DNA of 64,000 bases from a virus (IMGVR_UViG_3300028887_000078); one strand, 5' to 3'; positions 16,158-59,775 are shown, numbered from the stretch's first letter. Numbers and translations are program-made. The notes: generated from the sequence alone by a model not told the origin.

Positions 16158-16487
16158 ATGAAACTGACGGACACCAATGTATTGGCACCAAAAAGGCAAC
16201 CAGACATATCACACCTTGTTTCCGACCATCTGAACTACGATAACTACGACGGTACATTGCACGTGTGCATAATCAACCGAAAAGACAGTCACATCACGGA
16301 GTTCAATATCAGGTTCATAAACGAAGGTATGTCCACATACCTGCGCAGAATACTTGATGTACTTGACTTGGATATAAGCGAGGAGATAAAGTTGGACGCG
16401 ATAAGGGAATACTTCTACCGATGCTTCTGTGTAAAACTGTTGGAGGAAGTACACGACATAATCAGTGTGAATGTAACATACAAATAG
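16158..16487 (+). CDS. MRISE-motif family protein (MKLTDT)
   Basis: N-terminal motif; body resembles 50923..51270. Confidence 0.8.
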   Translation: MKLTDTNVLAPKRQPDISHLVSDHLNYDNYDGTLHVCIINRKDSHITEFNIRFINEGMSTYLRRILDVLDLDISEEIKLDAIREYFYRCFCVKLLEEVHDIISVNVTYK

Positions 16488-16490
16488 ACT

Positions 16491-16874
16491 ATGAGAATAA
16501 CTGAAAGCGGAAACATAAGGGAATCACTGATAAAGGACAAGTTTGACAAGGTGTTCTATGACGACAGGTATGTTGTTGATGAGAGTGCATACGACACAGT
16601 GCTGTATGTTCAGTTCAGGTCGGAAAAAGACCCCAATGACATCCTGACCTACAAGATATTATTCTATGAGGACTACAACAAGAGCAGTGACGATATGCAC
16701 AAACTTGTCGTGACGCTTATGAAGGATGAAACTATGGACACCTGCGACAACGCGGTGAAGGAGTACCTGTTCAAGCATCAAGGTGTGATATTCGGTGACA
16801 TTGAGATAAACGGGGTGGTTTACAACAACCCCTACAAAGTGGTCAGCACAATGATTAAAAGCGCAAGGATATGA
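16491..16874 (+). CDS. MRISE-motif family protein (MRITES)
   Basis: Motif; clear paralog of 50486..50926. Confidence 0.85.
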   Translation: MRITESGNIRESLIKDKFDKVFYDDRYVVDESAYDTVLYVQFRSEKDPNDILTYKILFYEDYNKSSDDMHKLVVTLMKDETMDTCDNAVKEYLFKHQGVIFGDIEINGVVYNNPYKVVSTMIKSARI

Positions 16875-17368
16875 AAATCACAGAAAGCGGCATTTCGGAA
16901 ACTCTTGAAATGGACAATCCCATATTGGTGGACTCCAATGTCATAATTGACAACGGATACGGGAATTACACCCACAAACTCATAATCGCCTATTTTGGAG
17001 ATGGATACCATACACATTTCAGAATACTGTTCAATCCTGAAACGATGAGCATCAAACTGCACAACGCATTCTTACAGGCGGACATTGACCCTTATAACAT
17101 AAATCAGTGCAATGTTCCAAACGAAACCGACAATTTTGAACTTATAAAATGCGTGTACTACGATTTTGACAAGGAGACCGACAAGAAGAAATACAACGGC
17201 ATCAAAGAATATGTAAACTCCATAAAGCACAACAACCACCCAAATATTGAAATCATATATGGCATCAAGATAAACAAAGGTGAGTACTCTGCAAGCAGAG
17301 GCACTTATTCGGTGAAGGTGTCAGGCGGTTACTACCATACGACAAACATAACGGCGAAGAATATATGA
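16871..17368 (+). CDS. MRISE-motif family protein (MKITES)
   Basis: Motif; ATGA overlaps. Confidence 0.8.
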   Translation: MKITESGISETLEMDNPILVDSNVIIDNGYGNYTHKLIIAYFGDGYHTHFRILFNPETMSIKLHNAFLQADIDPYNINQCNVPNETDNFELIKCVYYDFDKETDKKKYNGIKEYVNSIKHNNHPNIEIIYGIKINKGEYSASRGTYSVKVSGGYYHTTNITAKNI

Positions 17369-17814
17369 AACTATCGGACACGGACAAATTCAAGGGGAAC
17401 AAACTCACCGACAACGGGGAGTATTACATAAACGACTATGAGGGCGGCAAACCTTCGGGTGGCATCATCGTTGAGATAACCTGCGCCTCCGAGACCTACC
17501 AATTCAACATATACTATGACCTGTTGCGGGTCAGCAGGGAGGTCGCGCAAATCCTTGACGGGATAGAGAAGCACAAGAACAGATACAACGGTATCACGAA
17601 AAAGGAGGGTGACAACAACGCCGCCGAACTTTGTGCCAACATCCTCAAATACCTGAACAAGACATACCCTGAAATAACGACCGACGGGACATACAGGGTG
17701 ACGGGATGGAGCAACTACATATATGCGCCGTTCCAAGTGAATGTGGTCGGTGTGAACGGCATATCGGGTGTGACCGTGAACACAACAATAGGAAATTCAA
17801 ACTACGCGATATGA
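17365..17814 (+). CDS. MRISE-motif family protein (MKLSDT)
   Basis: Motif; paralog of 50017..50499. Confidence 0.85.
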   Translation: MKLSDTDKFKGNKLTDNGEYYINDYEGGKPSGGIIVEITCASETYQFNIYYDLLRVSREVAQILDGIEKHKNRYNGITKKEGDNNAAELCANILKYLNKTYPEITTDGTYRVTGWSNYIYAPFQVNVVGVNGISGVTVNTTIGNSNYAI

Positions 17815-18215
17815 GAATAACACAATCCGACAGTATGGTGAAGGAGGTCATTGATACCTGTGGGAACATTGACGTGTTTGACACCACGTCTGCATACAAC
17901 GATGTGTGCGCTATCTTGGACGGCGGTAAGGCGAAGAACTGCCTCCGCTATGCCGTTCTCGGAATCACAAGGGACAGGAAAGGTGCGGTCATCAGGATAT
18001 GGTACAACGACGGAATGGAGTCAAAGCAACTTATGAGGGTGCTGCGGACGATAGCGAACAGGGACTTCATCACAACGAAGAGTTGGTACGGTGTTGTTCT
18101 CGGATATTTCTGCCGCTACCTGAACGAGACCGCCAACAAGGACATCTTTCCGAAATGGTACAGTATGCGCAGTGCGAATGCGAAAAAAATGAAGGATATG
18201 AGCATACATATCTGA
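17811..18215 (+). CDS. MRISE-motif family protein (MRITQS)
   Basis: ATG 17811 by ATGA overlap; DVFDT..AY and RIWY shared with 48241..48648 and 49631..50020. Confidence 0.8.
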   Translation: MRITQSDSMVKEVIDTCGNIDVFDTTSAYNDVCAILDGGKAKNCLRYAVLGITRDRKGAVIRIWYNDGMESKQLMRVLRTIANRDFITTKSWYGVVLGYFCRYLNETANKDIFPKWYSMRSANAKKMKDMSIHI

Positions 18216-18244
18216 AATTTTCATTATATTCAATAAAAAGAACT

Positions 18245-18517
18245 ATGCGGATAAGCGAGTCAGACGAATTTGGCAGTGAAATCTATGATGGGGAAGTTTT
18301 TGACCTGTATGACGATTTTGCAGTATATCACGCTATGGCGAGGTTCTTGAATCAAGGGGTGAATATTCCGCCAAACATTATGTATGTGGAATTGGGGTTT
18401 ACAACAGTTTATTGAAAATCTAATAAAATCTATGAAAAACTGATAAAAACCAACCGATATAAATCTATGCACAGTCCGAACAAATATGAGATGAAACAAA
18501 TGGAGATTGGAATATGA
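18245..18517 (+). pseudogene. MRISE-motif gene (MRISES) interrupted by in-frame TGA at 18413-18415
   Basis: Frame stays open 33 codons past the TGA and ends in an ATGA overlap with the next gene. Confidence 0.7.
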
Positions 18518-18960
18518 GAATAAGCGACAACACAATTCTTAAAGACCTTGCCGACACGGGAGTCCGCCACATAGATTGGGCAGACGGAAGTTGGGGAAAC
18601 GGTGTGCCGTTCTGCAACCTGTTCACCCTCGCCACCATAAAGTTGTTTGACGGGAAAGGCGGCGTGCTTGAAGAACCGCAGACACTTGAGTTCAACGCCA
18701 CATCCTACCAATTTGCCCGCGTATCCTGCGCTATGAGCGAGATAATAAAAGGGGCGATAGCCATCAAGGAACTCCGTGAGAGCGGAATAAACGGAAAGGA
18801 GATGGAGATGAAGGAGACCTTGCAGACACTTGAACGCAAGGTTAGGAACTACATATCCCAAGTGGCGATTGGTCGCGACATCCTCTGTCTGACGGAACTG
18901 CAAACATTTGACATAAGACTGTATGACGATGACGGGAAGGAGATGTTCAGACTGCTATGA
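18514..18960 (+). CDS. MRISE-motif family protein (MRISDN)
   Basis: Motif; ORF track. Confidence 0.8.
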   Translation: MRISDNTILKDLADTGVRHIDWADGSWGNGVPFCNLFTLATIKLFDGKGGVLEEPQTLEFNATSYQFARVSCAMSEIIKGAIAIKELRESGINGKEMEMKETLQTLERKVRNYISQVAIGRDILCLTELQTFDIRLYDDDGKEMFRLL

Positions 18961-19806: not shown

Positions 19807-19825
19807 AATATATCGTTGATATATC
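19807..19825. promoter_or_regulatory. GATATATC-N3-GATATATC box
   Basis: AATATATC GTT GATATATC overlapping late promoter 19803. Confidence 0.65.
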
Positions 19826-19834
19826 GCAAGGATT

Positions 19835-22496: not shown

Positions 22497-22907
22497 TCAG
22501 TCCACCGTACACATAAGGTATATTTCAACACCACCGCTTTGCGATTGGGACGCCCGCAATCTCAAATTGTTGAAGTTGTAGGTCTCCAATGCGTTTTTGC
22601 AGTAGTTTTTAGTCCATTTGTCCGCATTGGACGATTTGCTGTCGTAGGACGCGAGTATCTTGACACGCACCTCGGCGGGCGTTGCACCTGTAATCTCGAA
22701 TGTGTGTATATTGAGTGGAAATTCGAGAACGACACCTGACGCGTAGTTGTATATTCTCATATTCGCAACGGAACCTTCGCCCAACATACCGACGATTTCG
22801 TCGCGGTTTCTTGCAAAGAAACCGTCGGTCGGTGCGCTTGCTTCAAACACCTTGTATATGGGTGCGCTTTCAAGTATGCCTTGTGACAGCGCCGAATCGG
22901 AAATCAT
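22497..22907 (-). CDS. MISD-type motif protein (MISDSA)
   Basis: ORF track; N-terminus resembles the MISDS group. Confidence 0.65.
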   Translation of the reverse strand: MISDSALSQGILESAPIYKVFEASAPTDGFFARNRDEIVGMLGEGSVANMRIYNYASGVVLEFPLNIHTFEITGATPAEVRVKILASYDSKSSNADKWTKNYCKNALETYNFNNLRLRASQSQSGGVEIYLMCTVD

Positions 22908-26712: not shown

Positions 26713-26782
26713 AGTTTTTCTTGAATATAATGGAAACTGAAAAAGACCGAAAAACAACCCGTATAAATATATTGTCGGTATT

Positions 26783-26801
26783 GATATATCGGCGATATAT
26801 T
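26783..26801. promoter_or_regulatory. GATATATC-N3-GATATATC box
   Basis: GATATATC GGC GATATATT just downstream of late promoter 26762. Confidence 0.7.
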
Positions 26802-40195: not shown

Positions 40196-40200
40196 ATGTT

Positions 40201-46278: not shown

Positions 46279-46316
46279 AAAAAACGCAGGTGTATTGAAC
46301 CTGCGTTTTTGTTTTT
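46279..46316. terminator. Bidirectional terminator
   Basis: AAAAAACGCAGG-TGTATTGAA-CCTGCGTTTTT. Confidence 0.8.
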
Positions 46317-46347
46317 TACAAGACCAAAGGGGACAATTCCGAAAAAA

Positions 46348-47329: not shown

Positions 47330-47359
47330 AGTCTTTTATTTGAATATAATGCTTTTTTC

Positions 47360-47378
47360 GATATATCGGCGATATATC
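47360..47378. promoter_or_regulatory. GATATATC-N3-GATATATC box
   Basis: Perfect copy 10 nt upstream of promoter motif 47340. Confidence 0.75.
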
Positions 47379-47391
47379 CGCGCAATTTCCG

Positions 47392-47802
47392 TCAATCGGC
47401 GACATCCTCGAACGTCAACTCATCGACAATGACTGCCGACACGTTTCTCTTGAACACCCTGTCCCATATATACTCCTCAAGTGCGTACCGCATAGCGAAC
47501 ACAATGGCGTCGTCGCCGCATCTTTCAGGGACGATGGTCTTCGTGCTGTATTTGAGAACACCGCTTATGTATCGGACATATATGTGTGACAATTCTCTCG
47601 ACATCTTGTTTGGCGTTGCCGCGCAATATATGATTGCATCCCAATTTTCAATCAGTGTCGTTTGTGTTTCTTTGTCATTCAGCACAACCTTGAATTTCAC
47701 ATAGAGTTGTTTGCCGAAGTCTCCTGTGTCGATGTACATCGTGGTTATCCTTCCTCCGTCTATGCTTTTTTTCACATTGTTTTCGCTGTCGCTTATCCTC
47801 AT
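47392..47802 (-). CDS. MRISE-motif family protein (MRISDS)
   Basis: Motif. Confidence 0.82.
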   Translation of the reverse strand: MRISDSENNVKKSIDGGRITTMYIDTGDFGKQLYVKFKVVLNDKETQTTLIENWDAIIYCAATPNKMSRELSHIYVRYISGVLKYSTKTIVPERCGDDAIVFAMRYALEEYIWDRVFKRNVSAVIVDELTFEDVAD

Positions 47803-47842
47803 AACTGCATTTTTATTTTGAAATGTTTTGGGAAAGAAGGGA

Positions 47843-48250
47843 TTATGTTTTCATAAGTATGTCGATGTCCTTCGGTGCGACCACGCGGTAACCGTTCGCC
47901 ACGATTCCGTCATAGGGGGTGTTGCATTGGAGGTATTCGGAAAGGATTTCCAAGAGTCTGCGTTTTACCGAGTCCTGATTCTGTTTCAAGACGTTGAAAT
48001 ACTGCTTGTGCAACTCCAACACTATCTTGAGTGACTCGCTCATACGTTCGTCCGCAAGATACCACAAGCGCAGGTCGAATGTCTTTCCACGCCACTCGCA
48101 ACGCGTCTCGATGCACCAAAGGTCTTCGCAGGGCACGTTTTTTTCCGCAACTTCCAACGTACGCAACCAAGTGTCCAAATTGTCGTATGTGTTGCGGGTG
48201 CCGTCAAGAAGCGCCTCTTTCAAATGTTCAGGGGATTCGGTTATTCGCAT
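47843..48250 (-). CDS. MRISE-motif family protein (MRITESPEHLK)
   Basis: Motif; related to 49152..49628. Confidence 0.82.
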   Translation of the reverse strand: MRITESPEHLKEALLDGTRNTYDNLDTWLRTLEVAEKNVPCEDLWCIETRCEWRGKTFDLRLWYLADERMSESLKIVLELHKQYFNVLKQNQDSVKRRLLEILSEYLQCNTPYDGIVANGYRVVAPKDIDILMKT

Positions 48251-48648
48251 TGTATCGTCATTTTTCTTATCTGTTCAGGTGAGGGGATGCGCAATGTGTA
48301 CCACTTCGGTTCAATTCCACTGAAACCGCACTCATCGAAATACCGCTTCAGTTCTGACAGAACGTCGGTGAATGTTACATCGCTTTTGAATGTGTGTGAC
48401 TTCAACGCCGTTTTCAGGACTTTGTTGAGGGACACACTCTCCTTTCCGTTGATGTACCAAAGGCGAACCATCCTTTCCTCCCCTTTAATATACCAACCTA
48501 TATAAAGATACCTCAACCCCTCCGCGTACCTGTTTTCGCGCTTCGCTGTAACCGCGACCCTGTACGCGGGATATGTGTCGAACACGTCCTCGACTCGGAC
48601 GTTCTCCGCAATTACCTTTGCCTCTCCGTTTGATTTGCTTATCCTCAT
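48241..48648 (-). CDS. MRISE-motif family protein (MRISKS)
   Basis: Motif. Confidence 0.8.
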   Translation of the reverse strand: MRISKSNGEAKVIAENVRVEDVFDTYPAYRVAVTAKRENRYAEGLRYLYIGWYIKGEERMVRLWYINGKESVSLNKVLKTALKSHTFKSDVTFTDVLSELKRYFDECGFSGIEPKWYTLRIPSPEQIRKMTIQCE

Positions 48649-48656
48649 ATCGGTTT

Positions 48657-49142
48657 CTATGAAAAGTATTCCCCGTTGAATATGAAAAGTTCATAAATGT
48701 CCGTCCACATATCGGACGCCTTGAGGTTGTCGGGGTCGGATTCCGTCCACGAGTTGCGGTTGGCATAGTCTATGAAACCCGCGTAATTCGGGTTTCCGTA
48801 AGTGTTGTTGTATGATATTTTTGATATGGCGCCCCAACTTTCCACAATGGCGTGCGGACTGTTTTTGAACTCAAGGAAATCCTCCATCCCAGCCAAAACG
48901 AACGCGGCGTACAATTCATTGCTCATACAATCGTTGAAATACACCGGCACGATGGGGTATATTGGATTGTTGGAATCTTCGTATGTCTCCTCGCGTTTTT
49001 TCAGATTTATGCACATCTTGTATCTGTAAACGACACCATTGCCACAGTCGAGTATCCTCCTGTATTGTCCGCTCTTGTTCGTCCTGCACACGGGTCTGCA
49101 CACAGCGTTCCGCATTATGTTCCCATTGTCGCTTATCCTCAT
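48657..49142 (-). CDS. MRISE-motif family protein (MRISDN)
   Basis: Motif. Confidence 0.82.
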   Translation of the reverse strand: MRISDNGNIMRNAVCRPVCRTNKSGQYRRILDCGNGVVYRYKMCINLKKREETYEDSNNPIYPIVPVYFNDCMSNELYAAFVLAGMEDFLEFKNSPHAIVESWGAISKISYNNTYGNPNYAGFIDYANRNSWTESDPDNLKASDMWTDIYELFIFNGEYFS

Positions 49143-49151
49143 ATCCGATTG

Positions 49152-49628
49152 TCAGTTGCAATAGTTTTCTATGAATTGCGAGAATTTGGTCTTGTCCCCC
49201 ATAATTTTTACGATTTCCCGTTTGGTCGCCTTATTGATGTCGTAACCCCTGACGCGCACGCCGTCCAACACGGAATTGGCGTTTATGTATTCGGACAGGG
49301 CGTTGTAGAGTTTCTTCTGTCCATCCGCGATTTCCGCCTCCGTTGTGTAAATCGTCTTCACCTTTGTGAGATAATCGACCTGCGCCGCCGCAAAGTCGAG
49401 CATATACTTGCTTACCGATATGCCAGGCAGATACAATATCATAATGCAGACCTCTTTGTCCCTGTAAAGGCAGTCCGCGAGAATGTACAGCATTTTGCCG
49501 GGTTTCTCGCTTCCGTCGCACACGTCGTTCGCATAGCATATCGCGTCCGTGTTGTCGAACAGGTGGTAGGTGCTCTCAATGCCAACAACCTCGTCTTTGA
49601 TGTGTTCGGGTGATTCGCTTATCCTCAT
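49152..49628 (-). CDS. MRISE-motif family protein (MRISESPEHIK)
   Basis: ATG 49628. Confidence 0.82.
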   Translation of the reverse strand: MRISESPEHIKDEVVGIESTYHLFDNTDAICYANDVCDGSEKPGKMLYILADCLYRDKEVCIMILYLPGISVSKYMLDFAAAQVDYLTKVKTIYTTEAEIADGQKKLYNALSEYINANSVLDGVRVRGYDINKATKREIVKIMGDKTKFSQFIENYCN

Positions 49629-49630
49629 AT

Positions 49631-50020
49631 CTATTCGGTTTTCGTTTTCACGCTGTTTATGCACTCATAGTCCGCTCTGAATGTTCTGTACCAAAGCACG
49701 CTTGCGTTCCTGAAGCGTCTTGTGTGGTGCCGCAGATAGAACTCAAGTTCGTTCACAATCCTTTCCCTGTCGAAGTCGTATGAATTTCTGATGATTCCGT
49801 TCAATGCCATTGTCAACTGACTGTCGTGCCACCACAGGCGGACGCGTTCATTCCTCCCGTTGTTTTTGTTGAGCACCTCCATCTCAAAAAAATTCAGTCT
49901 CGACACCCTGCCGTTGTTTTGGTACGCCCTCAACTGCAAATATGCGAACAGGGTGTCGAACACGTCGTAGACGGTTTCGGCGAATTGCTGTTTCAGATGT
50001 CCTGCTTCGGTAATTCTCAT
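49631..50020 (-). CDS. MRISE-motif family protein (MRITEA)
   Basis: Motif; promoter motif 50035. Confidence 0.82.
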   Translation of the reverse strand: MRITEAGHLKQQFAETVYDVFDTLFAYLQLRAYQNNGRVSRLNFFEMEVLNKNNGRNERVRLWWHDSQLTMALNGIIRNSYDFDRERIVNELEFYLRHHTRRFRNASVLWYRTFRADYECINSVKTKTE

Positions 50021-50499
50021 TTTATTCCCTTTGGTTGAATATAATGGAAATACTTTTCATCCACTTTCACATCCGCATATTTGTTCAGTCCGTGAGACGC
50101 GTGCAAGGTCTTGAGCGTCGCCGAGTCCACTATAATATAGGGTGCGAGGACATATTCCCCCATTCTAACGAACCTGTATATGTTTGTATCATCCACTTCA
50201 GGATAATGTCTCCCTATGTATGACAGCACGATTCGTTGCAGTTCGGTGTCATTTGTCCAATCGTTTCCCTTCGTTTCTTTTCCGAATGCCTGTTTGATGA
50301 TTTCACGCAATTCCCCTGTGCAGTTGGCGTCGTCGTATATGATGTTGAACAGGTGCCTGTCGTTCCTGCAACTCTCCACCTCGACGGCAATCATACTGTA
50401 AGCACGTCGCGACGCTACGCTTTCGGTGTCGTATATCGTGTACTCACCATTGTCCTCAAGTTTTTCTATGTCAGTGATGTGCGTTTCAGAGATTTTCAT
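50017..50499 (-). CDS. MRISE-motif family protein (MKISET)
   Basis: Paralog of 17365..17814. Confidence 0.85.
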   Translation of the reverse strand: MKISETHITDIEKLEDNGEYTIYDTESVASRRAYSMIAVEVESCRNDRHLFNIIYDDANCTGELREIIKQAFGKETKGNDWTNDTELQRIVLSYIGRHYPEVDDTNIYRFVRMGEYVLAPYIIVDSATLKTLHASHGLNKYADVKVDEKYFHYIQPKGIK

Positions 50500-50926
50500 T
50501 TTTCATCAAGTATTTGTATTCAACACGTTCCAATTTATAACCGTAGTCCAAGACCGTTTTTTCGACACAACCGTCTTTGACAACTTCATTCAGCGCTGAA
50601 CCCAAAACGAAGTCGTGCCGTTTCTCAAGGTATTCCTTCACCGCGTATTCCATTTCTGTGTCTGTGCCGCCCTTCGCGGTCATAGCACCCAATCCGCTCT
50701 TCACGGTCATAGAAACCAATTTGTGAAGTTCGTCGCTGCATTTATAATAGTCCGAATTGAACATAATCGCATATCTGATTGGTTTGAGGTTCCTGCATTC
50801 CGAACGGAAGGTCACATACATACACACGTCATACTCATCGTCCAACGGGTTCCCGTGGTCGTAGAATGTGCGGTCTGCGTGATTGTCAATGCCGTACCTT
50901 ATGTTGTCGGTTTCGCTTATTCTCAT
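50486..50926 (-). CDS. MRISE-motif family protein (MRISET)
   Basis: ATG 50926; paralog of 16491..16874. Confidence 0.85.
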   Translation of the reverse strand: MRISETDNIRYGIDNHADRTFYDHGNPLDDEYDVCMYVTFRSECRNLKPIRYAIMFNSDYYKCSDELHKLVSMTVKSGLGAMTAKGGTDTEMEYAVKEYLEKRHDFVLGSALNEVVKDGCVEKTVLDYGYKLERVEYKYLMKNENL

Positions 50927-51270
50927 TTGTGAACTATGTATATGTCTCCGATTTCGTATCTGCATTCTTCCAATTTGAAGCAGTACATATTGAAAAAGTA
51001 GTCCCTTACGGAAGAGATTGTTTTAACCCGCATACGGTCTTCAAACGAACCTGATTCTATGGACTCGACAATGTCGTGCAATTCGCCTGTCATATAGTAT
51101 GTCACATACTTGACATTGAACAATATGGTTTCATTGTTCAGCGTGTCGAACACATTGACAACCATAACGGCGTCCGATTCGCTTTGGGACAGCATTGTGT
51201 CGTTCAGGTTGGCGCTTACGGTTCCTCCCATAACGGTTTCCGATAATGGCGTGGTTTCACTTATTCTCAT
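50923..51270 (-). CDS. MRISE-motif family protein (MRISET)
   Basis: Motif. Confidence 0.82.
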   Translation of the reverse strand: MRISETTPLSETVMGGTVSANLNDTMLSQSESDAVMVVNVFDTLNNETILFNVKYVTYYMTGELHDIVESIESGSFEDRMRVKTISSVRDYFFNMYCFKLEECRYEIGDIYIVHK

Positions 51271-51274
51271 AATA

Positions 51275-51688
51275 CTAAATCCAAAGTCCTGTTATATGTT
51301 TTTTCTCAAAATCATAATAACCCATAGATGTGATATAGTCGGAGATTTTTTGGATGAGTTTTTCTCACACCGAATTGTAGTTCGTTTCCCCTGACTTCAG
51401 TTTGTTTATATCGGATATTATACTTGCAATCTTCTTGCTTTGGTCGAATTGGTCGTACCAAATTTGGTATTCCCGCTCATATACGTTGTCCTTCTCCAAC
51501 CTGCTCACCTCACCGCAGGGCATAGCGGACGTCACAACCCTTATGTTCTTGAGATGCCCTGTCCCCACATAGATTCCGTCCTTTCGTTTCAAAATCTCCT
51601 TTTCAATCCATTCCCTGTCGCATACAATGAACTCGTTTCCGCTGTCCAACACGTTCTCCTTTATGTTTGTGCTTTCTGTAAGTCTCAT
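51275..51688 (-). pseudogene. MRISE-motif gene (MRLTES) interrupted by in-frame TGA at 51365-51367
   Basis: ...NYNSV*EKLIQKISDYITSMGYYDFEKKHITGLWI-TAG, ending 4 nt before the next ATG. Confidence 0.75.
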
Positions 51689-51693
51689 CGGTT

Positions 51694-52212
51694 TTATTGG
51701 TTTAACAGTTTTTTTATTTCATTTTTGAGGCATTCCTCGATGTCTTCCTCCACTTTCTTGACAACAAGGTGCCGTATGAATGCGTGTACATACTTTTTTG
51801 TGTCCACTATGCGGCACCGACCGCCGACGCATTCCCATTCATATATGTCGAAACCATTGTCGCCATCCGCAAAATAGTTGCTCAACATACGGAGGTATTC
51901 GTTGGCAATGTGTGAGAAATAACGGTACTTGTACCGTGCAGGAACGTTGTTGGTGTTTTTCTTTGCCTTTTTGTAAGCCTCGCCAAGTGTGTGTGAGTCA
52001 AATGCGCATTTGTCAAGTCCTGAACCATTGTGTTCGATTTTCAATGCAAGCGTCCGTGTTATTCGTGCGTCACACTTACTTCTTATGCACAGGATGAGGT
52101 ATTCGTTATCGCAGTCGGATTGCGTCTCACCTATGTCAATCGGGTACGGTCTTATGTCAAACCCGTTGAATATGTTGTCGTTCTTTATAATTCCTGTGTC
52201 TGTCAGTCTCAT
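51694..52212 (-). CDS. MRISE-motif family protein (MRLTDT)
   Basis: Motif. Confidence 0.82.
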   Translation of the reverse strand: MRLTDTGIIKNDNIFNGFDIRPYPIDIGETQSDCDNEYLILCIRSKCDARITRTLALKIEHNGSGLDKCAFDSHTLGEAYKKAKKNTNNVPARYKYRYFSHIANEYLRMLSNYFADGDNGFDIYEWECVGGRCRIVDTKKYVHAFIRHLVVKKVEEDIEECLKNEIKKLLNQ

Positions 52213-52216
52213 AATC

Positions 52217-52603
52217 TCATTGTTTTACAACATAGACATAGACGCTGTATTTCAAAAATTCCTCGCTGTATTTGGACGACAATGGGTGTGCGCGGATGTA
52301 TTCATAGATATAGCTGCTCGGACAGGGGTTCTCTTTGTTTCTTATGTTCGTTATGAGCGCGGACATAGGTTTGCTCATAACATCGCCGTAGTTTATGCAC
52401 ACCATTATTATATGCAGTTTGCTCAAGTTGTTGTGTGCGAACCCCTCCTTTGCTTTTATAAACCTGTGCGCATAGATTTTCAACTTGCGGTCGGTTTCAC
52501 ACATTTCGCCTTCAAGCAGATAGTTGTCGTCAAGTTCTATGCTGTCTATGTCGTCTATGCACTTTTCGTTTTCAACGATGCCTTTTCTTTCAGTCAGTTT
52601 CAT
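52217..52603 (-). CDS. MRISE-motif family protein (MKLTER)
   Basis: Motif. Confidence 0.8.
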   Translation of the reverse strand: MKLTERKGIVENEKCIDDIDSIELDDNYLLEGEMCETDRKLKIYAHRFIKAKEGFAHNNLSKLHIIMVCINYGDVMSKPMSALITNIRNKENPCPSSYIYEYIRAHPLSSKYSEEFLKYSVYVYVVKQ

Positions 52604-52607
52604 AACG

Positions 52608-53129
52608 CTATTTTTTTATAGACCATTGTGTCGCACTCACCGCCTTGTAGTACACAATGTTCTTCACTCTTGCCATTGCATACGGATGGTTGTGAAAATA
52701 CTCTGTCAGAAGTTTGTCCCTCTTTTCGCGTTCCTCCATTTCCATATATCGGCACCTTTTGTAATAATCGTCGTAATTGGCAATGGACTCCGAACCGAAT
52801 ATGGCGCCTTTGAAATTTTTGTACGCCACGACTTTTGTATGGTGGTCGAGTATCTCCTTCATCATCGGCGATTGGTATGCCTTGTCGGATGTGTATATTA
52901 TTTCACATCGGATGTAGTCTTTGTCGTCTTTGTCGAACCCATAGACAAGGTCTGTAAAACTGTCTTTGCTGTTTGGGTACTCCTTTCCGAAAACAACTAC
53001 GAATTTGTGCGAGAACTTGTCCGACGCACTTTCGCAGTCCGCGTCTGTGCGAATGTCGTACAATACGAGTTCGCCGTCGTTCTTTTCGTCGGCGATTTCC
53101 GACAGGTTTTGTGTTTCTGTTATTCTCAT
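52608..53129 (-). CDS. MRISE-motif family protein (MRITET)
   Basis: ATG 53129, 2 nt after promoter motif 53132. Confidence 0.82.
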   Translation of the reverse strand: MRITETQNLSEIADEKNDGELVLYDIRTDADCESASDKFSHKFVVVFGKEYPNSKDSFTDLVYGFDKDDKDYIRCEIIYTSDKAYQSPMMKEILDHHTKVVAYKNFKGAIFGSESIANYDDYYKRCRYMEMEEREKRDKLLTEYFHNHPYAMARVKNIVYYKAVSATQWSIKK

Positions 53130-53159
53130 ATTTGAATATAACAAAAAAATCGACTGATT

Positions 53160-53654
53160 TTATCCGAAATATATATAATCTCCGTTCCACTCAACCGCAT
53201 CGACAAAATAGTCTTCTATGCTGTCGAACGACAAAAGCATATTCGGGTGCAGACTTATGTAGTTCTTCAGTTCGCAGAAGAACCTTCTTTTGCATACAAA
53301 CGGGTCGTCATTCCCTTTATGCTTTCGGTGGCGCCAATAGGGTGCCGAATACGGGTTGGGTTCGCTTTCAATCCAAAGCAATGAGTTCGACGATTTGTAT
53401 TTTCTCCATTTTTTCAAAACCCTTTGTATGGACTGCGATTGGCAGGAATGGTGTGTGTTGTACACGATTTTCGCAAATATGGTCTTGCGCCTGTCGCCTT
53501 CAAACTTGACGAGTTCGACTGTCATATCGTCGCATTCGTCGCTCGCGTAAAGCGTGCGGGACGGCATATACTCCCTGTCGTTGAGGGTGATTTCACCCTC
53601 GTCCAGCCGTTTCGATATTCCATCTTTCACGGTGTCGGTTTCGCTTATTCTCAT
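53160..53654 (-). CDS. MRISE-motif family protein (MRISET)
   Basis: Motif; promoter motif 53673. Confidence 0.82.
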   Translation of the reverse strand: MRISETDTVKDGISKRLDEGEITLNDREYMPSRTLYASDECDDMTVELVKFEGDRRKTIFAKIVYNTHHSCQSQSIQRVLKKWRKYKSSNSLLWIESEPNPYSAPYWRHRKHKGNDDPFVCKRRFFCELKNYISLHPNMLLSFDSIEDYFVDAVEWNGDYIYFG

Positions 53655-53707
53655 AATTCCGATTCGTTTTTATTGAATATAATGGAAACGCATAAAAAAG
53701 AAACACC

Positions 53708-53726
53708 GATATATCCGCGATATATC
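53708..53726. promoter_or_regulatory. GATATATC-N3-GATATATC box (extended palindrome)
   Basis: CACC-GATATATC CGC GATATATC-GGTG. Confidence 0.75.
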
Positions 53727-53753
53727 GGTGGTTTATATTGGTGTTCACGGATT

Positions 53754-54359
53754 TCAGTTTTTCCTGAACCGTTTCCGATAGCACTTGTGGCACATAGGGA
53801 CATATTCCCCGTCGCCAATCATAATCTGCTCCCCGTCCGTTATCACTGTGTCCGTGGTCGCGTCATATCGTGCGTTCACAATCGCTTTGCTTCCGCACAT
53901 AGGGCAACTCAATTTGATTTCGTCTATGCTGTCCGCTATTTCCATAAGTCTTTTGGAACCCTCAAACAAGTTTGTCCTGAAATCCGTTCGCAGTCCGTAG
54001 CACATTACATTTATGTCAAGGTTGTCCGCGACCGCGCGGAGTTCGTCAATCTGTTTTTCGGTGAAGAATTGGCATTCGTCCGCAAGAACCCACTTCGGTA
54101 TGGTTTTGCCGCAGTTTGTCGTGACATACATACCCAAATGCTCCATAACTGCATCGAAGACATTGTCGTCCTTGCCGACGGTGACACATTCCGCAGACAA
54201 ACCCTTTATCCTTGACTCTATGCGGTTGCTTCTCGTGTCCGCCGCAGGTTTTATCAGCATAACGGGAAACCCCGCCTGTGTGAGTGAAAAATGCTGTGTT
54301 AGCAAAGTTGCCGATTTAGCGCTTGACATAACGCCGTATCTGAAATAAAGTTTGCCCAT
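53754..54359 (-). CDS. tdk: Thymidine kinase
   Basis: LYFRYGVMSSAKS, DECQF, CYGLRTDF, FEGS, C..CG and C..CY. Confidence 0.95.
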   Translation of the reverse strand: MGKLYFRYGVMSSAKSATLLTQHFSLTQAGFPVMLIKPAADTRSNRIESRIKGLSAECVTVGKDDNVFDAVMEHLGMYVTTNCGKTIPKWVLADECQFFTEKQIDELRAVADNLDINVMCYGLRTDFRTNLFEGSKRLMEIADSIDEIKLSCPMCGSKAIVNARYDATTDTVITDGEQIMIGDGEYVPMCHKCYRKRFRKN

Positions 54360-54360
54360 A

Positions 54361-54786
54361 CTATTCTCCTGTTCCGCTGTTGGTTAAAATGTCGTTTCCG
54401 TTGATTTGCGCAGTAACGGTATCCTCGCCTGTGATTTCAAATCTCACCTCGTGGTTGTCAACGTTGATATTGATTCCATCCTGTGCGTCGTTCAGGATTT
54501 CAAGACGACCTGCCATAAGTTGTTGGATTTTTTGGATATGCTCCGATGTCAGGGTGTATTCACCTATTGTGACACCCTGTGTGGTGACAACGACGTCCCC
54601 GACTCGAAGTTCATTTCCCTTCAATGCGGTCGTCGTGCTTCCGATTTCGTCCGCCGACACCAACTGACCGATGGTGTTGATTGCCTGCGCGAGAACCCTG
54701 AAATTGTTGTTGATTGTCACACGGGAGTTGTTCATACTGTCCGTGCCGAGAATTTCGGTTACTGTTATGTTGATATTGTTTGCCAT
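54361..54786 (-). CDS. Putative virion structural protein (late)
   Basis: GTDSMNNSRVTINNNF N-terminus typical of fibre/baseplate proteins; TATAAATA at 54808. Confidence 0.65.
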   Translation of the reverse strand: MANNINITVTEILGTDSMNNSRVTINNNFRVLAQAINTIGQLVSADEIGSTTTALKGNELRVGDVVVTTQGVTIGEYTLTSEHIQKIQQLMAGRLEILNDAQDGININVDNHEVRFEITGEDTVTAQINGNDILTNSGTGE

Positions 54787-54825
54787 ATTGTGAAAATTGG
54801 TTTGCTATATTTATACGCATACCGT

Positions 54826-55179
54826 TCAGGAAAATTCGATAGTATAGTATTGCGACACGAACCTTTCCGTGTTCGCGATGTTGTTGTGTATGTACCTGTC
54901 GAAAAGTCTAAACAAGTCGAAGTCGTTCGCACCCAACGGGTCTTTTTGCAGTTTGTCTATTTCATCGTTTATCTCCCTTATGTATATGGACGGGGAGTCG
55001 TACACATAAATCTGCACGTTCGCGCTCGAACTCCCTATGGCGTGCTCGCGCATATATACGGTGAACTTGTAGAGCGGTACGGATTCTTTCCATCTTCCGT
55101 CGTGTATGTCGAACCCGTCGGTTACGATTCCGCCGCCTGTACAGTTTTTCAATGTATTGTTTTCCGTTATCCTGCCCAT
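54826..55179 (-). CDS. MRISE-motif family protein (MGRITEN)
   Basis: Motif offset by one residue. Confidence 0.8.
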   Translation of the reverse strand: MGRITENNTLKNCTGGGIVTDGFDIHDGRWKESVPLYKFTVYMREHAIGSSSANVQIYVYDSPSIYIREINDEIDKLQKDPLGANDFDLFRLFDRYIHNNIANTERFVSQYYTIEFS

Positions 55180-55197
55180 AACACAATCTGTTTTTGT

Positions 55198-55632
55198 TTA
55201 TTTATGGGACGACTTTTCTTCAAGCATTTTCCTGTATGCTTCAAGTTCAGTTCCGTCTATTCCGGTCACGTTAATCTGCATTGCCTTGCACATTGACGTG
55301 AACGGGAGGAGTTTTTTCACATAGGTTCCGAGTTTTTTCCAAAAGATTGTGTTCGACGAACCGTATCCACACCAACGGTTCATCATCACGATGTCACTGA
55401 AGTCGGCGGACGGCACTACATTGAATATATCTTCGAGTTCGTAAGGTATGCTTTCGGCGTCGTATATCACTCTGACGTTCAAGTACATTTTCGTGTTCCT
55501 CATATCAATTCTCATAAGCATCCAACTCGGACATTCCGACAAAGTGGGTTCGATTATGCAAAGGGCGCTTTCGTCCGCGATTTTCCCGTTGCCTATCATA
55601 GTGCCTACGTCCGATTCGCTTATCCTGCTCAT
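55198..55632 (-). CDS. MRISE-motif family protein (MSRISES)
   Basis: ATG 55632 by ATGA overlap. Confidence 0.8.
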   Translation of the reverse strand: MSRISESDVGTMIGNGKIADESALCIIEPTLSECPSWMLMRIDMRNTKMYLNVRVIYDAESIPYELEDIFNVVPSADFSDIVMMNRWCGYGSSNTIFWKKLGTYVKKLLPFTSMCKAMQINVTGIDGTELEAYRKMLEEKSSHK

Positions 55633-56000
55633 AAATCGTTCACAAGTGTGTCGTACAGTTCCTCCGGCGTCGCAATCGACACGTCGTTTCCCTTTTCGTC
55701 TGTCAGGCAACCGCTTGTGTACTTCTTTCCGAACTCAAGGTCGTATATGAAGTATTGGAGGGTGTTGTTCTTTTCAGGAAGTTCAAATTCGGACTCAAGC
55801 GCGCCGATGAGTTCGTTTTCAAGTTCGGTGTTGTGCAGAAGTCCGAACAGGTCTACGAAGTCCATATCGTTTCTGAAACGGGAGGTGTTACGGAGCGTGT
55901 TCTCAATCCCGTCCTCGATTTCATCCGCGGAGGTTCTCGCCTTTTCAAGCGCCTTTATGATTTTGCAGAAGGTTTCCTTTTTCATTATTTTCCTTGCCAT
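55629..56000 (-). CDS. Conserved phage hypothetical protein
   Basis: YFIYDLEFGKKY...TPEELYDTL. Confidence 0.7.
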   Translation of the reverse strand: MARKIMKKETFCKIIKALEKARTSADEIEDGIENTLRNTSRFRNDMDFVDLFGLLHNTELENELIGALESEFELPEKNNTLQYFIYDLEFGKKYTSGCLTDEKGNDVSIATPEELYDTLVNDL

Positions 56001-56063
56001 ATCAGAGTGTATAAAACGTGACACTTTAATATAACAAAAAACACGCCGCTTTTAACAGCATTG

Positions 56064-56519
56064 TCAAAAAATCTCATTCCAACCTTCATCGCACCAAGGG
56101 TACCATCGGTTCTTTATCGGTATTTTCGCGACCTCGCTTGTGCAGACCGACGCTATCGTGCAGTTTTCAAGGGACGGGACGTTTTTCCCGATGTATTCCG
56201 AAAGGGTGCTGAATATGTCTCCGTTGTAGTTCAGGTTCGACTTGTAATTGTTCGGTTCGGCATTCAGTTTATCTATGACGCGCGTTATTTCAGGCGATGT
56301 TTTTTCAGTGGCGTATATGACGCAGGTGGTGGCGATTTCACTCAATATGCTCGCCACGATTTCATAAACGGGTTCCACCTTCGGCGCACCGCTCCCATTG
56401 TCCGCATAGTTGTCGAAAATGCAGATGCAGCGGAACGGTTTGCCGTTAAGGAGTTTGTCCATTTTCATCCACGCCTTGTTTCGGATGCCTATCTCTATGC
56501 AACTTTCACTTATCCTCAT
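56064..56519 (-). CDS. MRISE-motif family protein (MRISES)
   Basis: ATG 56519. Confidence 0.8.
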   Translation of the reverse strand: MRISESCIEIGIRNKAWMKMDKLLNGKPFRCICIFDNYADNGSGAPKVEPVYEIVASILSEIATTCVIYATEKTSPEITRVIDKLNAEPNNYKSNLNYNGDIFSTLSEYIGKNVPSLENCTIASVCTSEVAKIPIKNRWYPWCDEGWNEIF

Positions 56520-56913
56520 TTTCAACCAATTTCACGTCATACACCTCGAAGTCGATGTCCACTATGAACGACCTGCAATTACGCGTGATGTAATTCGCCG
56601 CGTATTTGAAGAGGGTTTCCCTGCTTTTGCAGTGGTGCTTCTTTATGACCGCATACACATCGAGTATGCAGTCCAAGCAGGTGGTGCGCATCAACAAAAT
56701 GTCGGTGAACTCGACCACGACCTTGCTGCGCTTTTCCGCGCCTGTGTCAGCGTCTTTGTATTTGACGTACAGGTGTATTTCTCCGAAATTGCAATTCTTG
56801 CCAGAATACAGTTTTTCCCCGCCGACGCCCAACCAACACTGCACGTCGTCAACGGTCTCCAACACGTCAACGTCTATCGAGTTCCTTATGTTGTCGGATT
56901 CAGTCAGTCTCAT
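56506..56913 (-). CDS. MRISE-motif family protein (MRLTES)
   Basis: Motif; EIHLY..KVVVEF..FEVYDV subfamily. Confidence 0.85.
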   Translation of the reverse strand: MRLTESDNIRNSIDVDVLETVDDVQCWLGVGGEKLYSGKNCNFGEIHLYVKYKDADTGAEKRSKVVVEFTDILLMRTTCLDCILDVYAVIKKHHCKSRETLFKYAANYITRNCRSFIVDIDFEVYDVKLVENEDK

Positions 56914-57320
56914 AATAGTTCGATTCGTTTCATTTCAATAACCCTCACGTCATACACTTCGTACTCACACATCGACAGAATGCTGTGATGCCGAAGATAT
57001 ATTTCCGCCTGTTTGAGCAGTTGCGTTTTGTTCTCGCTTGTGTCTGATTTCATAAATTCATAATAAGCACCCAAGACTATGTCTATCAAACTTGTCCGTA
57101 TTGTCCACCTTGACGAGAACTCAACCACCGCCTTGTACTTTGTTGAGGTGCGCGTTTCACGGATGTAAATGTGAAGTTCGTTCCACATCTCGTTTGGAGG
57201 CACTATGAAAGTGCCAACGCTTGTGCAGTTTATCTTGGAAACGCTTGTGTCGTTTATCGTGGTCAAGGTTTCCACATTCTCAAGCGGAACGATGTCTGTG
57301 TTCGATTCGGTCAGTCTCAT
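56910..57320 (-). CDS. MRISE-motif family protein (recent duplicate 1)
   Basis: Near-identical to 57317..57700. Confidence 0.88.
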   Translation of the reverse strand: MRLTESNTDIVPLENVETLTTINDTSVSKINCTSVGTFIVPPNEMWNELHIYIRETRTSTKYKAVVEFSSRWTIRTSLIDIVLGAYYEFMKSDTSENKTQLLKQAEIYLRHHSILSMCEYEVYDVRVIEMKRIELL

Positions 57321-57700
57321 AGTTCGATTCGTTTCATTTCAATAACCCTCACGTCATATACTTCGTACTCACACATCGGCAGAATGCTGTAGTGCCGAAG
57401 ATATATTTCCGCCTGTTTGAGCAGTTGCGTTTTGTTCTCGCTTGTGTCTGATTTCATAAATTCATCATAGGCGACCAAGACTATGTCCATCAAACTTGTC
57501 CGTAATGCCCACCTTGACGAGAACTCAACCACCGCCTTGTACTTTGTTAAGGTGCGCGTTTCACGGATGTGAATGTGCAGTTCGTTCAACACCTCGTTTG
57601 ATGGCACCCTGAAACTGCAAAGTTGTATGTCGTTTATCGTGGTCAGGGTTTCCGCATTATCAAGCGGAACGATGTCTGTGTTCGATTCGGTCAGTCTCAT
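57317..57700 (-). CDS. MRISE-motif family protein (recent duplicate 2)
   Basis: Near-identical to 56910..57320. Confidence 0.88.
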   Translation of the reverse strand: MRLTESNTDIVPLDNAETLTTINDIQLCSFRVPSNEVLNELHIHIRETRTLTKYKAVVEFSSRWALRTSLMDIVLVAYDEFMKSDTSENKTQLLKQAEIYLRHYSILPMCEYEVYDVRVIEMKRIEL

Positions 57701-57708
57701 AGTTCTTG

Positions 57709-58074
57709 TTATTTTATGTCGATTTGCGGCAGTTTCACATCATACACTTCAAATTCGTCCCTTACAATGTCATAAGTGCGGACATAGTCGCGTGCAATAC
57801 CCTTCAATGTGCCTTTGGTAATTAAGTTTCGTTCAAACTGTCTGTATGCGTTCAACAAGTTGTCCATTTTTGACGAGTGCAGCATCCACTCCACTGCATA
57901 TTGCACGGTTATCCGTTTCCGAACCCCGTCCTTCCTTACATATATCCACGCCTGACGGTACTCCTTCCTGCCGTTCGCTTTCCCGCCTGTAAGAAGTCCA
58001 TAGTCATCGAAAACGGTCAGGTCTTCAACATAGTCCGTAAGGTTCTTCAGATTATCGTTTTCCGTTATTCTCAT
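57709..58074 (-). CDS. MRISE-motif family protein (MRITEN)
   Basis: Motif; FEVYDV. Confidence 0.85.
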   Translation of the reverse strand: MRITENDNLKNLTDYVEDLTVFDDYGLLTGGKANGRKEYRQAWIYVRKDGVRKRITVQYAVEWMLHSSKMDNLLNAYRQFERNLITKGTLKGIARDYVRTYDIVRDEFEVYDVKLPQIDIK

Positions 58075-58089
58075 ATCCTGTTCGGTGTT

Positions 58090-58515
58090 TCAATTTTTGA
58101 TTATCGTGACGTCCGTGATGGCATTGTATTGTATGTCGAAAAAGTCGGCAAGACCGTTCGTGAACAGATAGAGCATATAGCGCTGCGCCCAATATGCCCT
58201 GTACGAAAGCGTGATGAACATATTGTCAGACACCACTTTTGAGATTCTGTCGCTTATGTAGCGACCGCTTTTGTCGTCCACGAAACGCACGACCACAATT
58301 CCGTGTTTTTCCTTGACGGGTCTGTTCATATCACCAACGACTATCTTGCGTATATGGATATGCACTTCGGAAAACGTGAGGTTCTCCTTCTTTGCGAACT
58401 CCTCCGCGAACCCGTCGCTTTCCCCAAGCAGTATGGCGAGGTCGTTGTATTCCCCGAACATCTCCAATCCTTCGCTCACGGACTTCATTATGTTGTCGCT
58501 TTCCGTTATCCGCAT
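58090..58515 (-). CDS. MRISE-motif family protein (MRITES)
   Basis: Motif. Confidence 0.85.
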   Translation of the reverse strand: MRITESDNIMKSVSEGLEMFGEYNDLAILLGESDGFAEEFAKKENLTFSEVHIHIRKIVVGDMNRPVKEKHGIVVVRFVDDKSGRYISDRISKVVSDNMFITLSYRAYWAQRYMLYLFTNGLADFFDIQYNAITDVTIIKN

Positions 58516-58937
58516 AATTCGTCCTCCTGTATTTCAACGTCGTAAATACGGAACTCATCAACGTTTTTCAACTGCGGCGTATGCTTCAACCAATGCCTGT
58601 AGTATCTCGTCGCGCAATATAGTACTTCCGTTATGGGTTTGCCTTTGTGATAGTCATACCAAGACAGCAGTCTGTTCATCGCGTGTGTCGCATAACTGTT
58701 GTGTCTTTCGGTCAGGAACTCAATCTCTATCCTTTTCCTGCCTCTGACCCGTCTGTTGCCCGACGTCATCGTGCATTCCCCGTAGAAAAACATTTTTCCG
58801 AATTTCAGATTGCTTTTGTCCACCCCATACAGTTGACTCAAATCGTCGCCGTACAGGAATTTCAGGTCATTGAACTTCCCGATGGTCTCTATGCCGTTTG
58901 CAAGACTTTTCAGATTGTCGCTTTCGGATATTCTCAT
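58506..58937 (-). CDS. MRISE-motif family protein (MRISES)
   Basis: ATG 58937. Confidence 0.85.
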   Translation of the reverse strand: MRISESDNLKSLANGIETIGKFNDLKFLYGDDLSQLYGVDKSNLKFGKMFFYGECTMTSGNRRVRGRKRIEIEFLTERHNSYATHAMNRLLSWYDYHKGKPITEVLYCATRYYRHWLKHTPQLKNVDEFRIYDVEIQEDELCG

Positions 58938-58939
58938 CG

Positions 58940-59338
58940 CTATATGATTTTCACGTCGGTAAGTTTCACAAGACTTGTCGCGATTGGGAAATTGGTGCAC
59001 CACATATAGGTGCGCACCGACATTTCAAGGTCTTTGTTTGTCACGACGTCAGGGTTTTTTTCATAACGCTCAAATACATTGTCGAGCGCGGCGGTCATCC
59101 ACCTACCGTTGTGGTTACGGACAAAGAACACCGTGTACCTGAACGGTACGGAATACCCGTCATCCCTTCCGCCCCGTGCAAGACCCCGTATTTCCAATAT
59201 GGAGGTGTCGAGTATTTCCATATATTCCTTGACCCGTTTGCGGTCGTTTCCGAGAAGGGGCGCTATGTCCCAATACTCATAGTGCAGGGTGTTGTCCCCG
59301 GCGATGTCCATTGTGGTTCTGTTTTCGCTTATTCTCAT
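58940..59338 (-). CDS. MRISE-motif family protein (MRISEN)
   Basis: Motif. Confidence 0.82.
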   Translation of the reverse strand: MRISENRTTMDIAGDNTLHYEYWDIAPLLGNDRKRVKEYMEILDTSILEIRGLARGGRDDGYSVPFRYTVFFVRNHNGRWMTAALDNVFERYEKNPDVVTNKDLEMSVRTYMWCTNFPIATSLVKLTDVKII

Positions 59339-59346
59339 TTTCCTGT

Positions 59347-59775
59347 CTATTCAAAGTTGAAGTCATACACGCAGAAGGACACTATGCCCTTGAAACTCAA
59401 ATCATACATCAGCATATTCCTGACATACAAATCCAACGCGTTCATCAATTTTGCATTGTTTTTGGAGTTTTCCTTTATGTATTCGTCATAGTTCCGTATG
59501 ACGTTTTCCATTGCCGTTGAAGTGAGCATCCCGAACTCGTTTATGAACTTGACCACGACCTTTCCCGTCGTCTGTCGCCGCACACCGCCCACCGTCTCGG
59601 TGCATTTGCCGTAGATTGTGAGTATGGAATAGCAGTCGCACAAACCAATACTCCTGTCGAATGCGTCCTCGTTGCTTTTTGTCACGCCGTGCAGGATGTG
59701 GCAGTCGTTCAGCACCGCGACGGTCTTCGGTTCTCCGAGCAGTTCCTTTGTGTTTTCGGATTCCGTGAGTCGCAT
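59347..59775 (-). CDS. MRISE-motif family protein (MRLTES)
   Basis: Motif. Confidence 0.85.
   Translation of the reverse strand: MRLTESENTKELLGEPKTVAVLNDCHILHGVTKSNEDAFDRSIGLCDCYSILTIYGKCTETVGGVRRQTTGKVVVKFINEFGMLTSTAMENVIRNYDEYIKENSKNNAKLMNALDLYVRNMLMYDLSFKGIVSFCVYDFNFE

Follow-up and report, generated by a model that had tools for sequence, protein, structure and literature searches.

Why should some four dozen small genes of a single virus open with the same handful of amino acids, while the proteins behind that opening have diverged so far from one another? The question is raised by a 64,000-nucleotide (nt) stretch of viral DNA, IMGVR_UViG_3300028887_000078 (the window in what follows), for which a first-pass annotation made from the sequence alone had reported about 47 small genes with a common N-terminal peptide tag, covering roughly a third of the DNA, and had read the tag as a docking or sorting signal. 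A regular-expression scan of all six frames of the window combined with manual curation bore out both figures: we found 46 full-length tagged genes and one truncated copy, which occupy ~20 kb, or 31% of the window (Table 1). Each starts with M[RK][IL][ST][ED] or a one-residue variant of it (MISD, MGRITE, MSRISE or MARLTD). We present evidence that the tag is maintained as a peptide and can be carried by more than one kind of protein body, and argue tentatively that it is read in trans.

In the 35 canonical copies the first residue is always methionine, followed by arginine (28) or lysine (7), isoleucine (22) or leucine (13), threonine (20) or serine (15), and glutamate (27) or aspartate (6). 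Beyond residue 5 the preferences fade by about residue 10, with serine or threonine at position 6, asparagine at 8 and isoleucine or leucine at 9; an aspartate recurs near residue 24. The pattern M[RK][IL][ST][ED] is expected by chance at 3.1e-4 per protein, and the 47 copies in the window are not a chance accumulation. The MISD form, originally set apart as a group with its own tag, is the same tag with the arginine deleted (MRISDNTILK versus MISDNNILK), although the bodies behind it do differ in topology according to a model of moderate confidence. Three genes have a small residue inserted after the methionine (MGR-, MSR- and MAR-), and orthologues swap this residue (MSR/MGR, MGR/MAR and MAR/MGR). 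Among the scattered copies those at 26712, 31128, 31761 and 42310 stand, whereas the one at 22907 is doubtful, its L124 orthologue being untagged, and is probably a chance match judging from that alignment. The overlaps proposed to couple translation were also recovered: neighboring genes share nine ATGA overlaps and four longer ones.

Conservation of the tag follows the reading frame. The information profile is flat 5' of the start, jumps exactly at the ATG and is codon-periodic, with only 0.45 and 0.14 bit at the third positions of codons 3 and 4. The alternation between isoleucine and leucine is encoded as ATA versus CTG, serine is drawn from both of its codon families (AGC and TCN), and substitutions within the tag remain in the same residue class while the bases differ. 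Across 36 orthologue pairs with two close relatives (L001 and L006), identity is 98.9% over residues 1-5, 83% over residues 6-10 and 86% over the bodies. The ratio of nonsynonymous to synonymous substitution rates (dN/dS) is 0.50 for the bodies and 0.20 for flanking genes, and exceeds 1 in two pairs. In these alignments purifying selection is confined to the tag, and the view that selection targets the peptide rather than the DNA holds up well. The codon diversity on which that view was first based is real, but a strong synonymous bias had been overlooked: AGA encodes 20 of 28 arginines (5.8 expected), GAA all 27 glutamates and ATA 19 of 22 isoleucines. Because codons 2-8 of untagged genes are A-rich too (0.43 versus 0.31), we read this as a start-proximal bias of the whole phage.

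The same contrast between tag and body extends to more distant phages. When one subfamily served as query in an exhaustive HMMER search, only 18 proteins were returned among 1.84 billion representatives, and every full-length one is tagged (MRITDTENIR, MRISECDNVK, MRICECENIR and others); the MISD group has only 11 relatives among 5.8e9 proteins. Contigs of the 18-protein set keep the gene order glucosaminidase, array, thymidine kinase, and a syntenic array lies between the glucosaminidase and thymidine kinase genes of the more distant relatives L122 and L123. The L122 glucosaminidase and thymidine kinase are 70% and 86% identical to those of the window. Compared with the window gene that each matches best, most of its array genes reach 25-37% identity and two reach 35% and 52%; every one matched to a tagged window gene retains the tag, and there is a single untagged gene among them. 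Tags in distant relatives start MRISDC, MRITDT, MRISEC, MGRISES and MARITDS. In these comparisons the tag is thus the sole constant part of very fast-evolving proteins.

Further afield, a tag profile and regular-expression scan of LR756500.1 (462 kb, the whole sequence) found no MRISE family, and tblastn of the 'phages' collection with one member as query gave no match. An exact 16-mer of tag DNA hit 89 IMG/VR contigs, one match each, which is the chance level, and no tagged arrays were found among them. Literature searches found no description of this tag. Several IMG/VR proteins (L033, L041, L048, L064, L097, L100 and L110), which we take to be GH24-type lysozymes, start MRISENGINLIKFFEG, resembling MKISESGIG and MRISDNTILK; this likeness is probably coincidental because the loci were selected by the 16-mer itself.

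Two subfamilies were modelled with AlphaFold2. The model for the subfamily of gene 56506-56913 (24 sequences) has a predicted local distance difference test score (pLDDT) of 82.6, a predicted template modelling score (pTM) of 0.77 and the element order strand-helix-helix-strand-strand-helix-helix-strand. Its residues 1-10 have a mean pLDDT of 41. The MISD model (18 sequences; pLDDT 64.8, pTM 0.65) has the order strand-strand-helix-strand-strand-strand-helix, with a pLDDT of ~30 over residues 1-20. The first strand begins at residue 16 or 22 in the two models, which place the tag outside the predicted fold in both subfamilies. The possibility raised in advance, that the tag is a structural first β-strand and that matches of tagged genes to the DUF285 family are fortuitous, is at odds with these pLDDT values and with the E values of the DUF285 matches (Table 1).

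No credible family for the bodies was found in Pfam, PHROGs or the ESM Atlas (features and structure). Foldseek searches of the PDB and BFVD and a wide VIA-align search with both models gave no convincing fold match (best Foldseek E values 0.12 and 0.021, Z-scores 4.6 and 5.2, TM below 0.5), a failure that is no demonstration that the folds are new. Clustering of the bodies without their tags, which had been advised together with the structure search, was of limited yield: with the first 14 residues removed, BLAST and hidden Markov models (HMMs) connect small clusters only, and an iterated HMM seeded by the largest subfamily recruited no additional bodies. Collinear weak matches between bodies in hhalign nevertheless exceed controls (3.0% versus 0.6% at P≤0.01; 12.9% versus 5.3% at P≤0.05), and much of the main family is probably, on this similarity, one old family. 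Its bodies would then be distant relatives of one another. DUF285 is clearly a different fold, and the MISD group, judged from its predicted topology, may have yet another. Among the bodies there are thus DUF285 repeats and two or more distinct predicted topologies.

The two tagged DUF285 genes are clear members of this BspA-type leucine-rich repeat family (PF03382), exceeding its gathering score with 115.3 bits (30469-31128) and 100.9 bits (31132-31761) against a cut-off of 25. The family itself lacks such an N-terminus. Among the 120 best homologues of 30469-31128, the tag is present only in two orthologues from related phages and absent from the other 118. The window encodes one more DUF285 protein, 2143-3669, which is untagged. 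Orthologues of 30469-31128 start MKISESGIGG (95% identity) and MRITDTDFKD (70% identity). In the latter, four of the first six residues are changed relative to MKISESGIGR in the window, all within the allowed classes. Likewise, 31132-31761 has MARLTD in the window and MGRLTD in its L124 orthologue (start MGRLTDIKD). The DUF285 case, taken from these alignments, is the strongest evidence for a tag function that is independent of the body.

The arrays themselves are in rapid flux. Array 1 genes pair one-to-one, in the same order, with part of the minus-strand array at 49.6-51.3 kb, at 22-36% body identity. Because array 1 is wholly missing at the syntenic site of L124, it seems, on this gene order, to have arisen when a block was duplicated to another location. 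Strain X4 lacks precisely gene 56910-57320. In another strain the body of 52217-52603 is swapped for 393 other letters with the first 22 nt retained, and other strains have a 1247-nt insertion at 53687/53752. Arrays orthologous to 46348-53654 are present in L001 and L006. Over window positions 46300-60000, the synonymous divergence (dS) from these two relatives is 0.13 for array genes, far below the 0.52 of flanking genes in the same phage pairs, which suggests that strains have lately exchanged arrays or that the history is mosaic. An RNA library gave contigs on eight array pieces, a weak hint of transcription, as the run covers only 14 of 30 bins, carries no information on the rest and may contain DNA. 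In a contig of a more distant relative, GCA_016648615.1, two TnpB-like (OrfB_IS605 or Cas12f-like) genes are inserted in and beside the tagged array, in the interval from the glucosaminidase to the DUF2828 gene.

The tag stays fixed while the body diverges, is placed outside the fold by the models and persists on proteins with an unrelated fold. We therefore favor recognition in trans by something conserved as the best explanation, though we would place it a little short of probable. A peptide that does not change cannot be docking on its own body when that body has become unrecognizable; the reader has to be conserved as well. Under trans recognition, M-[RK]-[IL]-[ST]-[ED], with or without G, S or A after the methionine, would be a short flexible recognition peptide at the extreme N-terminus, read by a single conserved partner. 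It would be joined to a lineage-specific library of small, mostly acidic α/β proteins of ~140 amino acids (aa) that duplicate, are replaced and diverge very fast, and would also have been attached, at least once, to an unrelated DUF285 repeat protein. Variable specificities would reside in the bodies, plausibly for conflict with the host or between phages, and through the tag all of them would be linked to the same machine or site. The effector role of the bodies and the timing of their expression are likewise what we infer, and the early anti-defence or host-takeover function and the common hub or compartment suggested in the first-pass annotation are conjectural.

Several observations weigh against this explanation. 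The weak collinear similarity among many main-family bodies indicates that most copies are tagged by descent. As tandem paralogues, the two DUF285 genes count as a single acquisition, and it is this that portability rests on, perhaps together with the MISD group, for which the model is only moderately confident. The body swap lies directly behind the first 22 nt of 52217-52603, and therefore recombination at the 5' end could spread the tag without selection for portability. The A-rich synonymous bias at codons 2-5 means that the beginning of the message is to some extent under selection as well. Low pLDDT is no proof that the tag is free in the real protein. Finally, the phage is uncultivated, and the partner in the trans-recognition model is a postulated one.

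The nearest precedent is the capsid-targeting sequence (CTS) of phage T4. The T4 leader reads MKTYQEFIAE, and the site pattern of the prohead protease, gp21, is L/I-x-E. The T4 internal proteins (IPI, IPII and IPIII) are diverse, fast-changing accessory and defence proteins in which this short N-terminal leader is the only conserved part (PMC3012670). By analogy, the MRISE tag could be a particle-loading leader that brings proteins into the prohead or another part of the virion and is cut by the maturation protease after Glu5. The carrier is a T4-like phage, with gp32, UvsW, gp13-like and baseplate-like genes and TATAAATA motifs, and an I/L-x-E sequence that would suit the protease stands at residues 3-5 in 27 of the 35 canonical copies. 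In LR756500.1, the closest public relative, a clear T4-like leader stands on large arrays of proteins: ~24 proteins encoded by this sequence (462 kb, 24% GC) begin with MKYIKEYEEFLLE or a near variant. Part of them are arrayed in tandem; the bodies span 81-491 aa, and some resemble leucine-rich repeat proteins in their sequence. LR756500.1 thus makes large-scale use of a T4-like leader.

A leader of this second class is also present in the window. The MAHIKxIDEM type occurs there on unrelated acidic proteins (MAHIKTINEM, MPHIKKVSEM, MAYIMTIDEM, MTHIMKIDEM and MAHIKRIDEL), four of the five about 20 nt behind TATAAATA, and copies beside thymidine kinase in L001, L006 and L122 start MARIMCIDEF, MAHIMRIDEF and MAKLMRIDEF. 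The first-pass annotation, which recognized no described family for the tag, passed over both the T4 CTS and this leader. Its idea of a docking or sorting signal survives as trans recognition, but with a known precedent that it had missed: by analogy, the second-leader genes and the T4 internal proteins offer one for the leader principle in the same phage clade. Like the tag, the second class places one leader on many unrelated bodies, partly arrayed, in the same genome and clade; charge does not distinguish the two classes, both being acidic. MAHIKxIDEM and the MKYIKEYEEF of LR756500.1 resemble the T4 leader, whereas the tag shows no sequence likeness to it. The better T4-leader match in this genome thus lies right behind TATAAATA, while the MRISE tag differs in sequence, belongs to another set of genes and occurs in 47 copies behind TTATATTCAA; its arrays have no TATAAATA-type promoter, the late type expected of genes expressed along with head assembly. 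Its core of five residues would make a propeptide half the length of the ten-residue T4 leader. Position 5 exchanges glutamate and aspartate freely (aspartate in 6 canonical copies, in all MISD genes and in half of the L122 copies), which fits a need for charge better than a glutamate-specific cut. We consider capsid loading by the tag unlikely.

An explanation by descent, which we rank next and also regard as improbable, is that the tag acts in cis as the best-conserved piece of one old paralogous family, folding back on the body or contributing to a shared active or binding site, with the DUF285 copies as by-products of recombination. The residual collinear similarity of the bodies, the conserved aspartate near residue 24, the expansion of the arrays by tandem and block duplication and the body replacement after 22 nt are all in its favor. 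It accounts less well for the very low pLDDT of the tag in both models, for the different order of structural elements in the MISD group, and for class-preserving selection that retains the tag on the DUF285 repeat fold, where the Asp24 context is absent.

The same five codons might instead serve expression, governing how translation is initiated, early elongation or the stability of the N-terminus in long operons with overlapping genes and few Shine-Dalgarno sites, with no partner protein involved. Conservation confined to the first five codons and the strong preference for AGA, ATA and GAA would agree with this, as would the general A-richness of gene starts in this phage, the very short leaders of several array heads behind TTATATTCAA, and the many ATGA stop-start overlaps, where codon 2 has to begin with A. 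However, the third positions of codons 3 and 4 are free, isoleucine and leucine switch between ATA and CTG, and one-codon insertions and deletions are tolerated with the motif retained. Untagged genes of the same operons (55629-56000, thymidine kinase and glucosaminidase) manage without the tag, and highly conserved phage genes do not use it, making an expression element distinctly unlikely. Highly improbable is a recombination joint, in which the 5' end is preserved as DNA and its microhomology helps to shuffle gene cassettes: contigs of other strains do break or switch at gene starts and promoter-like motifs, one with its body replaced after 22 nt, but the conserved stretch is only ~15 nt and its conservation is codon-periodic, preserving residue class rather than bases.

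Trans recognition of the tag and the presence of the second leader can be joined in a wider proposal, possible if rather doubtful: that the phage has two N-terminal address codes, a T4-like capsid leader on TATAAATA genes and an independent MR[IL][ST][ED] code that sends a library of ~47 rapidly diversifying small proteins, together with captured repeat proteins, to a different conserved machine of phage or host. Candidates would be a device for ejection or delivery, an enzyme that modifies or processes proteins, and a hub in the host. The code would then amount to a portable, general protein-sorting signal in a bacterial virus that goes beyond capsid targeting. Outside phages, the oomycete RxLR and Plasmodium PEXEL (RxLxE/Q/D) motifs are N-proximal sequences of about five residues on hundreds of clustered, rapidly diverging effector paralogues. 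The likeness is one of principle only, a short motif that addresses and a body that varies; RxLR and PEXEL sit behind a signal peptide and act in eukaryotic secretory pathways, whereas the tag includes the initiator methionine and a signal peptide is absent.

Should trans recognition hold, a phage would possess a second code for addressing proteins, in addition to capsid targeting. Sequence alone would then mark a whole set of fast-evolving, otherwise unannotatable accessory proteins of abundant uncultivated gut megaphages, and the five-residue tag would provide a handle for partner pull-downs and for the loading of foreign proteins. Even as a family signature only, the arrays represent an extreme case of gene-family expansion and turnover in a huge phage (body dN/dS 0.5, genes lost or replaced from strain to strain, a block duplicated to another locus).

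Two promoter-like motifs recur in the window. TTATATTCAA occurs 16 times exactly and 30 times with at most one mismatch (6.7 expected), in the extended form TTTTCCA-TTATATTCAA-TAAAAG, 2-72 nt upstream of an ATG. It is positioned at or before array heads. TATAAATA occurs 23 times (1.2 expected), and none of the 23 lies inside or at the head of an array, in agreement with the annotated preference of array heads for one motif over the other; one copy, at 31202-31209, precedes 30469-31128, a DUF285 gene, by 74 nt. A palindromic GATATATCGCCGATATATC-like element stands beside TATAAATA or TTATATTCAA at operon borders (near 408-423, 19813-19829, 26780-26800, 41838-41858, 47360-47385, 53690-53712 and 61050-61070) and could be a regulator binding site or a terminator. 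Directly 5' of the first MISD gene there are three tandem copies of a ~14-nt CAATCTGTAAAAGT-like sequence (37550-37600, plus strand).

Table 1. Positions of tagged genes, promoter-like motifs, second-leader genes and replication or repair genes; positions refer to the window unless LR756500.1 is named.
Feature	Position	Strand	Remarks
Array 1, six tagged genes and a truncated copy	16158-18960	+	Starts 16158, 16491, 16871, 17365, 17811, 18514
Truncated tagged gene, 56 aa, MRISESDEF...	18245-18412	+	Directly 3' of TTATATTCAA at 18224
Doubtful member, MISDSALSQG	22497-22907	-	L124 orthologue (21.6% identity) starts MQDAPVSRVF, without tag
Single tagged gene, MRLTETELLE, 171 aa	26197-26712	-	TTATATTCAA 8 nt upstream of ATG; gene absent in L124
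DUF285 repeat protein, tag MKISESGIG	30469-31128	-	Pfam PF03382, E 1.8e-33
DUF285 repeat protein, variant tag MARLTDIGN	31132-31761	-	Pfam PF03382, E 4.9e-29
MISD group, seven tandem genes, tag without Arg	37606-40623	+	Starts 37606, 38021, 38450, 38912, 39321, 39740, 40201
Tagged gene, MRLSETKNIS	40620-41096	+	Final gene of plus-strand array; ATGA overlap with preceding gene
Single tagged gene, MKLTETNIIS	41861-42310	-	
Array, 16 tagged genes	46348-53654	-	One untagged 58-aa gene at 47153-47329
Array, 11 tagged genes	54826-59775	-	One untagged gene at 55629-56000; includes modelled subfamily of 7-8 members
TTATATTCAA, promoter-like	16077-16086	+	Before array 1
TTATATTCAA	53673-53682	-	Before head of 53654 array; further copies within array at 53132-53141, 50035-50044, 47340-47349
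TTATATTCAA	60932-60941	-	Before glucosaminidase gene heading operon with 59775 array
TTATATTCAA	35583-35592	+	Possible head of plus-strand operon reaching MISD array; operon link inferred
Second leader copies	3695-3907, 45888-46220	+	
Second leader copies	29860-30366, 34780-35133, 41276-41803	-	
LR756500.1 leader proteins, loci L008-L032	e.g. 11706-15898, 179973-181730, 197835-201793, 312960-318055		Positions in LR756500.1
gp32-like protein	10393-11289		T4-like replication/repair
UvsW-like helicase	12203-13720		T4-like replication/repair
RNA ligase	14204-15826		T4-like replication/repair

The UvsW-like helicase is 46% identical to that of LR756500.1, a 462-kb uncultured phage, and 32-39% identical to helicases of other phages of 540-735 kb, including the Prevotella Lak phages. 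Bovine gut metagenomes contain DNA near-identical to the window. By these sequence matches the window evidently comes from a huge phage of the cattle gut, uncultivated, with T4 and the Al-Shayeb/Lak megaphages among its relatives; the window uses the standard genetic code. Besides the genes listed in Table 1 and the gp13-like and baseplate-like genes, it encodes enzymes of nucleotide metabolism (thymidine kinase, an IMPDH/GMP-reductase-like enzyme and a NUDIX protein), an M16 peptidase, DUF285 repeat proteins, a DUF2828/DUF7788 protein and a collagen-repeat protein. The M16 (insulinase-type) peptidase (533-1651, plus strand, 372 aa) has an intact HLMEH zinc motif and, as at the arrays, TTATATTCAA upstream; it is possibly a processing enzyme. 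A protein with a TnsA-like endonuclease N-terminal domain (33199-33690, minus strand; Pfam E 5e-18) is solitary, has TATAAATA upstream and is 92% conserved in L124.

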